A stretch of 64,000 nt of DNA from the NCBI GenBank assembly GCA_039621445.1, contig CP154954.1, positions 38,363,703 to 38,427,702 of the forward strand. The letters are read 5' to 3'. The notes beneath the pieces are model-generated. The model was given only the letters and a program-made list of their open reading frames with translations. It searched no databases and had not been told where the DNA came from. Below, in pieces: positions 53,940 through 54,348 of this stretch; within the stretch, counting starts at the first letter, position 1, and every line of letters begins with the position of its first letter. A program made the translations under genes and the position numbers. Origin of the DNA: Euglena gracilis. Lineage: Eukaryota.

Positions 53940-54032
53940 TCCGCCCATCCCTGCGGGGGACCTCCTGCATGCCCTCGCGGCGATGCCGACCGCGCGGCCA
54001 AGGGTGGGCCCGCTGGGGTTGGCCCTCCAGAG
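53940..54032 (+). CDS. Exon with the PDZ N-terminal strand (..DLLHALAAMPTARPRVGPLGLALQS); 5' boundary uncertain
   Basis: The R..GPLGL motif resembles the PDZ carboxylate-binding loop and continues in frame after the MITE. Confidence 0.7.
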
Positions 54033-54340
54033 CAGGCTTCTGCTTGAGGGTTCTCAGCACCCTCCTGGGGGAGGGGGGGCTGGACTGCAGCTTGTCCAAA
54101 TTTGGCTGATGGAAACCCTACCCTGGCAGACCCCCCCGCCGGGGTCTGGCAAGGCTGGCTAGTGGAAAAATGTTTTCTTTTTCCAATGACCAGCGCGAAG
54201 CGCCAAAAATTTTTTGGACCCCCAACACTGGCCAAAAATGCCCATTTTCGGCTTTTTGGGGGGGTCTAGCTCCATTTTTTCCGTTGTCTAGCAAAATGGC
54301 AAGCCAGAGGACCCCCCCAGGGTCTTTAAGCAACAGCCTG
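54033..54340. mobile_element. hAT-type MITE, family D; candidate nonconventional intron (54030-54345)
   Basis: TIR CAGGCTTCTGCTTGAGGG / GTCTTTAAGCAACAGCCTG; perfect TSD ctccagag (54025-54032/54341-54348). Homologous to 11376-11808. Confidence 0.9.
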
Positions 54341-54348
54341 CTCCAGAG

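Follow-up and report, generated by a model that had tools for sequence, protein, structure and literature searches.

The window, as the whole 64,000-nucleotide stretch of Euglena gracilis DNA analysed here is called, contains on its forward strand a gene that codes for a PDZ domain. One of its PDZ-coding exons is split by a 308-bp element with CAG...CTG inverted ends, which is flanked by a perfect 8-bp duplication, CTCCAGAG. The exons, introns and element parts at the locus are as follows.

52862-53307, forward strand: second nonconventional intron of the gene, ACC-CTG...CGG-CCCCC before G, placed from the joint between 52856 and 53303 in the RNA contig.
53455-53943, forward strand: third nonconventional intron of the same gene, from RNA contig arithmetic and a register scan.
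53944-54029, forward strand: exon X, the start of the PDZ domain with its GLGF-like loop, from the bin-depth arithmetic of RNA contig record 9 and frame continuity; the 5' boundary is placed to within 14 nt.
54025-54032, forward strand: copy 1 of the target-site duplication, CTCCAGAG; read in the splicing register, it consists of five exon nt followed by the three nt of the N3 spacer.
54030-54345, forward strand: nonconventional intron of 316 nt, GAG-CAG...CTG-CTCCA before G, in the published-code register.
54033-54340, forward strand: MITE (non-coding, with inverted ends) of 308 bp, starting with CAGGCT and ending with AGCCTG.
54341-54348, forward strand: copy 2 of the target-site duplication, CTCCAGAG; it consists of the five nt of the N5 spacer followed by three exon nt.
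54346-54403, forward strand: exon Y, the region of the second PDZ strand, from the depth of record 9 and the gain in PDZ score.
54404-54678, forward strand: conventional GT-AG intron; record 9 resumes at 54677, with 2 ambiguous letters.
54679-54966, forward strand: exon Z, the C-terminal two thirds of the PDZ domain, with the stop codon TGA at 54832-54834 and then the 3' UTR, from the record 9 piece 54677-54966 and Pfam.

A sequence-only reading of this DNA had described a 308-bp CAG...CTG element with a perfect 8-bp duplication, and this anatomy is reproduced at 54025-54348. The exact direct repeat is in fact 10 nt long (CTCCAGAGCA), with the two letters after CTCCAGAG, CA, agreeing too. Aligned without gaps, the inverted ends of 54033-54340 agree throughout the first 6 positions, at 11 of the first 13 and at 13 of the first 20; with the flanks included, the inverted arms measure 21 nt and are 81% complementary. 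Together with one copy of the duplication the element amounts to 316 nt (3 x 105 + 1) and shifts the reading frame. Unspliced read-through runs into stops inside the element in frames 1 and 2 and into a stop at 54107-54109 in frame 0, so that the frame shift and the in-frame stop described earlier are both present. When the 316 nt are taken out, a single open frame leads through the short exon, across the GT-AG intron 54404-54678 and into the next exon; the flanking exons are undamaged, as had been proposed.

The code of nonconventional introns in Euglena, 5'-N3CDG-/-CH'GN5-6 before R, was set by knock-in genetics (Nomura et al. 2025, PNAS; PMC12501133); here and below, articles given by PMC number are cited for their accessible portions. 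The register 54030-54345 agrees with all positions of N3-CAG...CTG-N5 before a purine, the complementary middle bases included. This register, at a shift of -3, is the sole one that fits the code among the 11 equivalent registers of the element intron, and the purine, G at 54346, is the first base of the downstream exon. All 11 registers yield one and the same mRNA, and 0 of them have GT/GC...AG borders, in keeping with the earlier statement that no register of the duplication offers a GT..AG pair. The N3 spacer consists of the last three letters of repeat copy 1 and the N5 spacer of the first five letters of copy 2. Because 3 + 5 = 8, the code takes out the element and exactly one 8-bp repeat, an arithmetic already put forward in the sequence-only reading and matched exactly by the register 54030-54345. 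The RNA ends of the intron are predicted to pair, GAGCAGGCU with AGCCUGCUC, in a fold with an MFE of -148.9 kcal/mol (z -3.61; 0 of 100 shuffles as good), in which the GAG of the N3 spacer pairs with the CUC of the second repeat copy.

The element is a member of a repeat family. The family end motif has 6 matches in the window against 0.49 expected, a number reached in 0 of 100 shuffles. The homologues at 11376-11808, 14554 and 47256, on which the claim of a mobile family had been based, are recovered together with one additional end; the further family ends lie at 11796-11808, 14554-14566, 47244-47256 and 5999-6011, of which those at 14554 and 47256 are lone ends without a body. The longer relatives in the window are these.

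11376-11808, forward strand: older homologous copy, 73-78% identical and homologous along its length, with an internal insertion of about 110 bp.
5768-6011, forward strand: element sharing the family end motif (ends only), with the duplication TTTGGAAT / TTTGGGAT, identical at 7 of 8 positions.

The copy at 11376-11808 has no recognisable duplication (4 of 8 positions). A reverse-oriented partial copy at 55404-55648, which resembles 11470-11708 (72% over 251 nt), lies in an apparently spliced stretch 3' of the stop codon. In a DNA run, bin 54042-54275 has a word depth of about 126,000, compared with about 130 for the bins that flank it; the former value is not a copy number, and it indicates that the core of the element is highly repeated. 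Record 4 of the DNA contigs from run X1 (54313-55482), which carries the same species label, has the 3' end of the element joined to this gene, and the insertion is therefore not private to the source of the window. Far greater word depths, about 880,000 against about 130 in single-copy flanks, are seen at 51468-51701 and 56382-56849, where the DNA run has many alternative joints.

Elements of the same general build recur in the window. The scan took in pairs of CAG and CTG that are separated by 30-3000 bp and flanked by a perfect 8-bp repeat; its control was a set of 100 dinucleotide shuffles, which replaced a control with other trinucleotide pairs that was swamped by simple repeats. Eleven such pairs are found, against a shuffle mean of 1.96 and a maximum of 5. 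With at least 12 of 20 matching inverted-end positions in addition, 5 are left, against a shuffle mean of 0.03 and a maximum of 1, which excludes chance. Besides the element in the PDZ gene these are the following.

625-1478: CAG...CTG element with the perfect duplication ATGGGGAA.
2626-3046: CAG...CTG element with the perfect duplication GTCCCAGA and ends matching at 19 of 20 positions.
14674-14939: CAG...CTG element with the perfect duplication TTTGATAC, nested in the repeat that begins at 14554.
23045-23345: CAG...CTG element with the perfect duplication ATAGTGAC.

The elements at 14674-14939 and 23045-23345 have a common end type, CAGGGATTTTTTTAAG. A looser scan that tolerated up to 2 mismatches in the repeat gave 21 candidates, mostly noise, against a mean of 5.9 and a maximum of 13 in 30 shuffles; the clear-ended candidates 5768-6011, 8923-9379, 3289-3558 and 32040-32895 were kept from it. 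The inverted ends of 32040-32895 match at 20 of 20 positions with 8-bp flanks that differ at 2 positions, and those of 8923-9379 match at 19 of 20 with flanks that differ at 1. Open frames across the other duplication-flanked elements are uninformative, long random frames being common in GC-rich DNA.

The remaining content of the window is sparse in recognisable domains. Pfam searches with 10 long and the 150 longest open reading frames (ORFs) of the window returned only the PDZ domain and, in one of the 150, a weak LRAT match (E 5e-4). A reverse transcriptase considered for 3 ORFs near 60 kb is unsupported by any Pfam match, and Rfam finds 0 families in the window. Long CA/TG-type microsatellites at 49680-50900 read as Cys-Val and His-Thr repeats across all frames.

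RNA-derived evidence was sought for the region 51000-58000 in run X15, which is RNA by guess only, and in runs X21 and X24, which are raw reads labelled as RNA; run X1 is DNA. Record 9 of the X15 contigs, 930 nt long with a depth of 21.5, matches the window in pieces at 51695-51789, 52727-52856, 53303-53454 and 54677-54966. The record skips four stretches and keeps one reading frame, and it is therefore RNA-derived; the X21 reads cover the same exons. Where adjacent pieces join directly, one joint corresponds to a GT-AG intron, 51793-52729 in the canonical register, and for another, between 52856 and 53303, none of 6 registers offers GT-AG. The latter joint demonstrates that the organism removes nonconventional introns from this transcript.

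Record 9 has 142 letters between the pieces that end at 53454 and start at 54677, and with just 142 nt in this place the 308-bp element is absent from it. Of the predicted exons, 53944-54032 contributes 89 nt and 54349-54403 contributes 55 nt, together 144 nt, or 142 after subtraction of 2 ambiguous letters (AG). The length of 144 nt is a multiple of 3, and the exon before this stretch ends, as the exon after it starts, on a codon border. The arithmetic of contig depths, in which predicted and observed values coincide in seven bins (8.08, 11.9, 5.04, 10.6, 3.25, 6.15 and 20.5), assigns 67 nt of record 9 to bin 53808-54041 (depth 7.13) and 61 nt, corresponding to 54341-54401, to bin 54276-54509 (depth 5.6). 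From the 61 nt it follows that this piece begins at the first base of duplication copy 2, as exact removal predicts. The depths thereby place 128 of the 142 letters (67 + 61) and leave 14 nt unplaced. Strain differences may have caused these 14 letters to be clipped at the 5' end of exon X, or the letters may lie beside the element junction; if they lie at the junction, the removal might not be scarless.

The raw reads give a compatible picture. In X21 the exon coverage is similar on either side of the element 54033-54340, and the coverage of the element bin is about that expected from some 16 reads of a 35-nt repeated core, 54073-54107, with loose ends on both sides. This 35-nt core also occurs in RNA reads from other copies, with the loose ends at 54073 and 54107. 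Run X24 has zero coverage on exons X and Y, and X15 includes low-depth contigs (depth 2-3.4) over neighbouring introns, an indication that unspliced RNA or DNA is present in it. The sequence-only reading had named transcripts as the check on an exact 316-nt removal. Record 9 excludes the element and the depths fit such a removal; from its letter count and the bin depths, with 14 of 142 nt unplaced, we infer that the element intron is apparently excised exactly from the mRNA.

The other two nonconventional introns of the gene differ in how much of this layout they display. At 52862-53307 the flanks CCCCCACC and CCCCCGCC are identical at 7 of 8 positions (at least 7 of 8 is met at this spacing in 0.6% of the background), which gives the order CCCCCACC, CTG...CGG, CCCCCGCC, and 9 of 11 positions agree between the ends of the intron. 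This intron may represent a decayed form of the layout of the element intron; the repeat is C-rich and the evidence is weaker. In none of its 5 registers does the intron 53455-53943 have GT-AG borders or conform to the published code. Alternative borders for it that do fit the code were rejected, as they break the frame or the letter count of record 9.

The protein encoded at the locus was compared with Pfam and with its relatives. Exon Z alone matches PDZ_6 (E 6.1e-6; 26.3 bits at a cut-off of 27) over profile positions 14-49 of 54 and PDZ_2 over positions 28-78 of 80. The start of the domain is missing from both matches, and the first third of the PDZ domain therefore lies upstream. A search of 1.84 billion representative proteins yielded 230 matches with E <= 1e-3, the best 51% identical and all of them multi-PDZ relatives; the three that were checked are multi-PDZ_2 proteins, and the organism's own protein is absent among the 230. 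Among metagenome contigs, 29 loci are related to the PDZ region, all of them PDZ relatives of 37-53% identity and none a transcript. A comparison of exon Z with longer proteins produced 45 word-sharing candidates, none significant.

A hidden Markov model (HMM) of 82 positions was built from 198 segments of 150 of the 230 relatives, each segment extended by 38 residues upstream. The joined peptide of exons X, Y and Z scores 80.1 bits and matches positions 3-80 of 82, Y and Z together score 76.0 bits, X and Z with the middle exon skipped score 62.0 bits, and exon Z alone scores 60.0 bits; the relatives were picked by their likeness to exon Z, and only the upstream gain of 20 bits counts as independent evidence. 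Removal of 308 nt or of 324 nt in place of 316 nt changes the outcome to -1.8 and -2.0 bits, respectively. The earlier proposal that removal of 316 nt leaves an intact PDZ domain is thus upheld by an end-to-end match. The element is inserted between the first strand with its loop and the second strand of the domain.

Which transposon superfamily the element belongs to is suggested by its ends and its targets. CAG-type ends are typical of hAT elements, and 8-bp duplications are made by other cut-and-paste superfamilies as well. T, which accounts for 22% of the letters of the window, occupies position 2 of the duplication in all 5 perfect and all 4 near-perfect cases, and position 7 is A in 4 of the 5 perfect and 3 of the 4 near-perfect ones. 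The hAT element Hermes makes 8-bp duplications and prefers nTnnnnAn targets (PMC10368747). A hAT transposase or dimerisation domain is found in none of the 150 longest ORFs of the 64-kb window. The element had been called a hAT MITE outright; the 8-bp duplication, the CAG ends and the nTnnnnAn targets support that name, none of those ORFs supplies a hAT transposase for it, and the element is likely a hAT MITE as judged from these sequence features.

The anatomy of the element, its fit to the code, the multi-copy family, the four other 8-bp duplications and the restored PDZ domain are seen directly. The explanation that we prefer, with a probability of roughly 0.7, is that a non-autonomous cut-and-paste MITE, likely mobilised by a hAT element, inserted into the PDZ exon and that nonconventional splicing removes it together with one copy of the duplication. 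The transposon would have entered the exon for the start of the C-terminal PDZ domain and duplicated its 8-bp target, most likely through the action of a hAT-type transposase; the exon would formerly have been uninterrupted. In the RNA, the CAG and CTG ends would pair and form the signal that euglenid nonconventional splicing reads, and the cuts would fall 3 nt ahead of CAG and 5 nt past CTG. The element and one duplication copy would be lost, and the coding sequence would return to its state before the insertion because 3 + 5 equals the 8-bp duplication.

The element could alternatively be a mobile element read as a nonconventional intron and yet come from another, or a euglenid-specific, superfamily that makes 8-bp duplications. 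Such an origin is favoured by the finding that none of the window's 150 longest ORFs has a hAT transposase or dimerisation domain, and the CAG-type ends, typical of hAT, speak against it. The targets do likewise, with T in 9 of 9 and A in 7 of 9 cases in agreement with the nTnnnnAn preference of Hermes (PMC10368747), and we regard a superfamily other than hAT as unlikely. A different origin of the 8-bp repeat, as a by-product of intron gain through double-strand-break repair and not as a transposition footprint, has a precedent in the proposal made for a newly acquired gapC intron of E. agilis and its 8-nt repeat (PMC4770533). Break repair predicts neither an insert that belongs to a repeated family with the same ends elsewhere, nor four more CAG...CTG elements with perfect 8-bp repeats (0.03 expected), one of which, 14674-14939, is nested in another repeat, nor a T common to position 2 of the targets. 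All of these are present and count against break repair, which appears very improbable at this locus.

It is also conceivable that the insertion is disabling, the locus being a pseudogene or an allele with transcripts that retain the element and undergo degradation, or that the removal is imprecise. The 14 unplaced nt of record 9 and the X15 contigs of depth 2-3.4 over neighbouring introns, from unspliced RNA or DNA, would be in line with this. Record 9, however, has a depth of 21.5 and in its 142 nt between 53454 and 54677 no room for the element; the 144 nt of the predicted exons keep the frame between codon-border exons, the joined peptide is an end-to-end PDZ match, and X21 covers the exons to the left and right of the element to a similar extent. 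A disabled gene is accordingly given little credence. Spliceosomal removal of non-canonical transposon-derived introns has been described in a tunicate (PMC11282704), and the ordinary spliceosome might in principle remove the present element through unusual splice sites. With no GT/GC-AG borders in the 11 equivalent registers and agreement at all positions of the nonconventional code, such a role of the spliceosome is hardly credible.

A MITE origin for nonconventional introns has been proposed since 2013, at which time no euglenid transposable elements had been identified (PMC3935182), and the idea has been restated for diplonemids (PMC12621601). A review describes CAG at +4..+6, CTG at -8..-6 and "TSD-like" junction repeats, and circular RNA release is known for other euglenid nonconventional introns (PMC11282704). 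In E. agilis, 71.8% of introns are nonconventional, of which 61.2% carry the code and 38.8% do not; repeats are present at 84.4% of introns, and the repeat-bearing "slidable" introns were set aside, with their origin called unclear in the accessible text (PMC12501133). In the openly searchable literature, subscription papers excluded and articles partly accessible, we found no identifiable multi-copy element caught as a nonconventional intron, no named transposon family and no link between 3 + 5 = 8 and the hAT duplication. The sequence-only reading had left the novelty of its case undecided. The MITE origin, the TSD-like repeats and one 8-nt repeat are already in print; what is new is the concrete case of an element intron and the arithmetic that ties the cut offsets to the target duplication, and the general idea is an established hypothesis.

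On a broader scale, euglenid nonconventional splicing may in effect be an RNA-level excision system for hAT-type transposons, a generalisation that we put forward tentatively and consider somewhat less probable than not. If it is true, paired CAG/CTG ends would be recognised, and an insertion into an exon would be erased from the mRNA at once, given a purine after it. It would account for the predominance of nonconventional introns in a Euglena genome and for the junction repeats that most of them have; "slidable" repeats should then be most frequent at a length of 8 nt when placed in the N3/N5 register, and young introns should fall into MITE families with intergenic copies. The present locus supplies a concrete example: a member of a repeat family whose 8-bp duplication is intact and which agrees with all genetically defined positions of the code. 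The link N3 + N5 = 8 makes the MITE hypothesis testable genome-wide, at about 650,000 annotated E. agilis junctions, and would lead to a new reading of the 8-nt gapC repeat as a transposition footprint. If general, it would amount to a second, spliceosome-independent route for transposon-made introns at genomic scale and would point to where the splicing machinery of nonconventional introns might be sought.

Compared with the euglenid nonconventional introns studied so far (Nomura et al. 2025; Milanowski et al. 2014, 2016), the element intron is alike in the absence of GT-AG, in CAG at +4..+6 and CTG at -8..-6, in the downstream purine, the paired ends and the direct repeats at the junction, and in the presence of conventional introns in the same gene. 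It differs in that the intron body is a member of a repeat family with copies outside the gene and that both 8-bp copies are intact; for the introns studied so far, a transposon origin is a hypothesis in PMC12501133 and in earlier papers. Intron 4 of gapC, recently gained and present in the single strain ACOI 323 of E. agilis, is likewise nonconventional with eight-nucleotide direct repeats at its junctions. In contrast to the present case, these repeats were put down to double-strand-break repair, and no repeat family or superfamily is named in the accessible text (PMC4770533).

The introner elements of Micromonas, dinoflagellates and Amoebophrya are, like the element described here, DNA transposons with inverted ends and target duplications that have turned into introns, and in them too the duplication supplies part of the splice signal, which leads to exact removal (PMC11282704). 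This is in contrast to the present case in the machinery and in the numbers: it is the spliceosome, or a variant form, that removes introners, and their duplications measure 3-5 nt, whereas the duplication here is 8 bp with offsets of 3 + 5 (PMC11282704). The system that would remove the element in the PDZ gene is euglenid and looks non-spliceosomal. Of the element family, this copy is the one seen within a transcript, the RNA comparison having covered 51000-58000. With hAT MITEs and maize Ds the element shares the 8-bp duplication, the nTnnnnAn target, the short imperfect CAG ends and a small non-coding body. Maize Ds is removed from RNA through cryptic spliceosomal sites and usually imprecisely, whereas the removal of the element at 54033-54340 appears exact.
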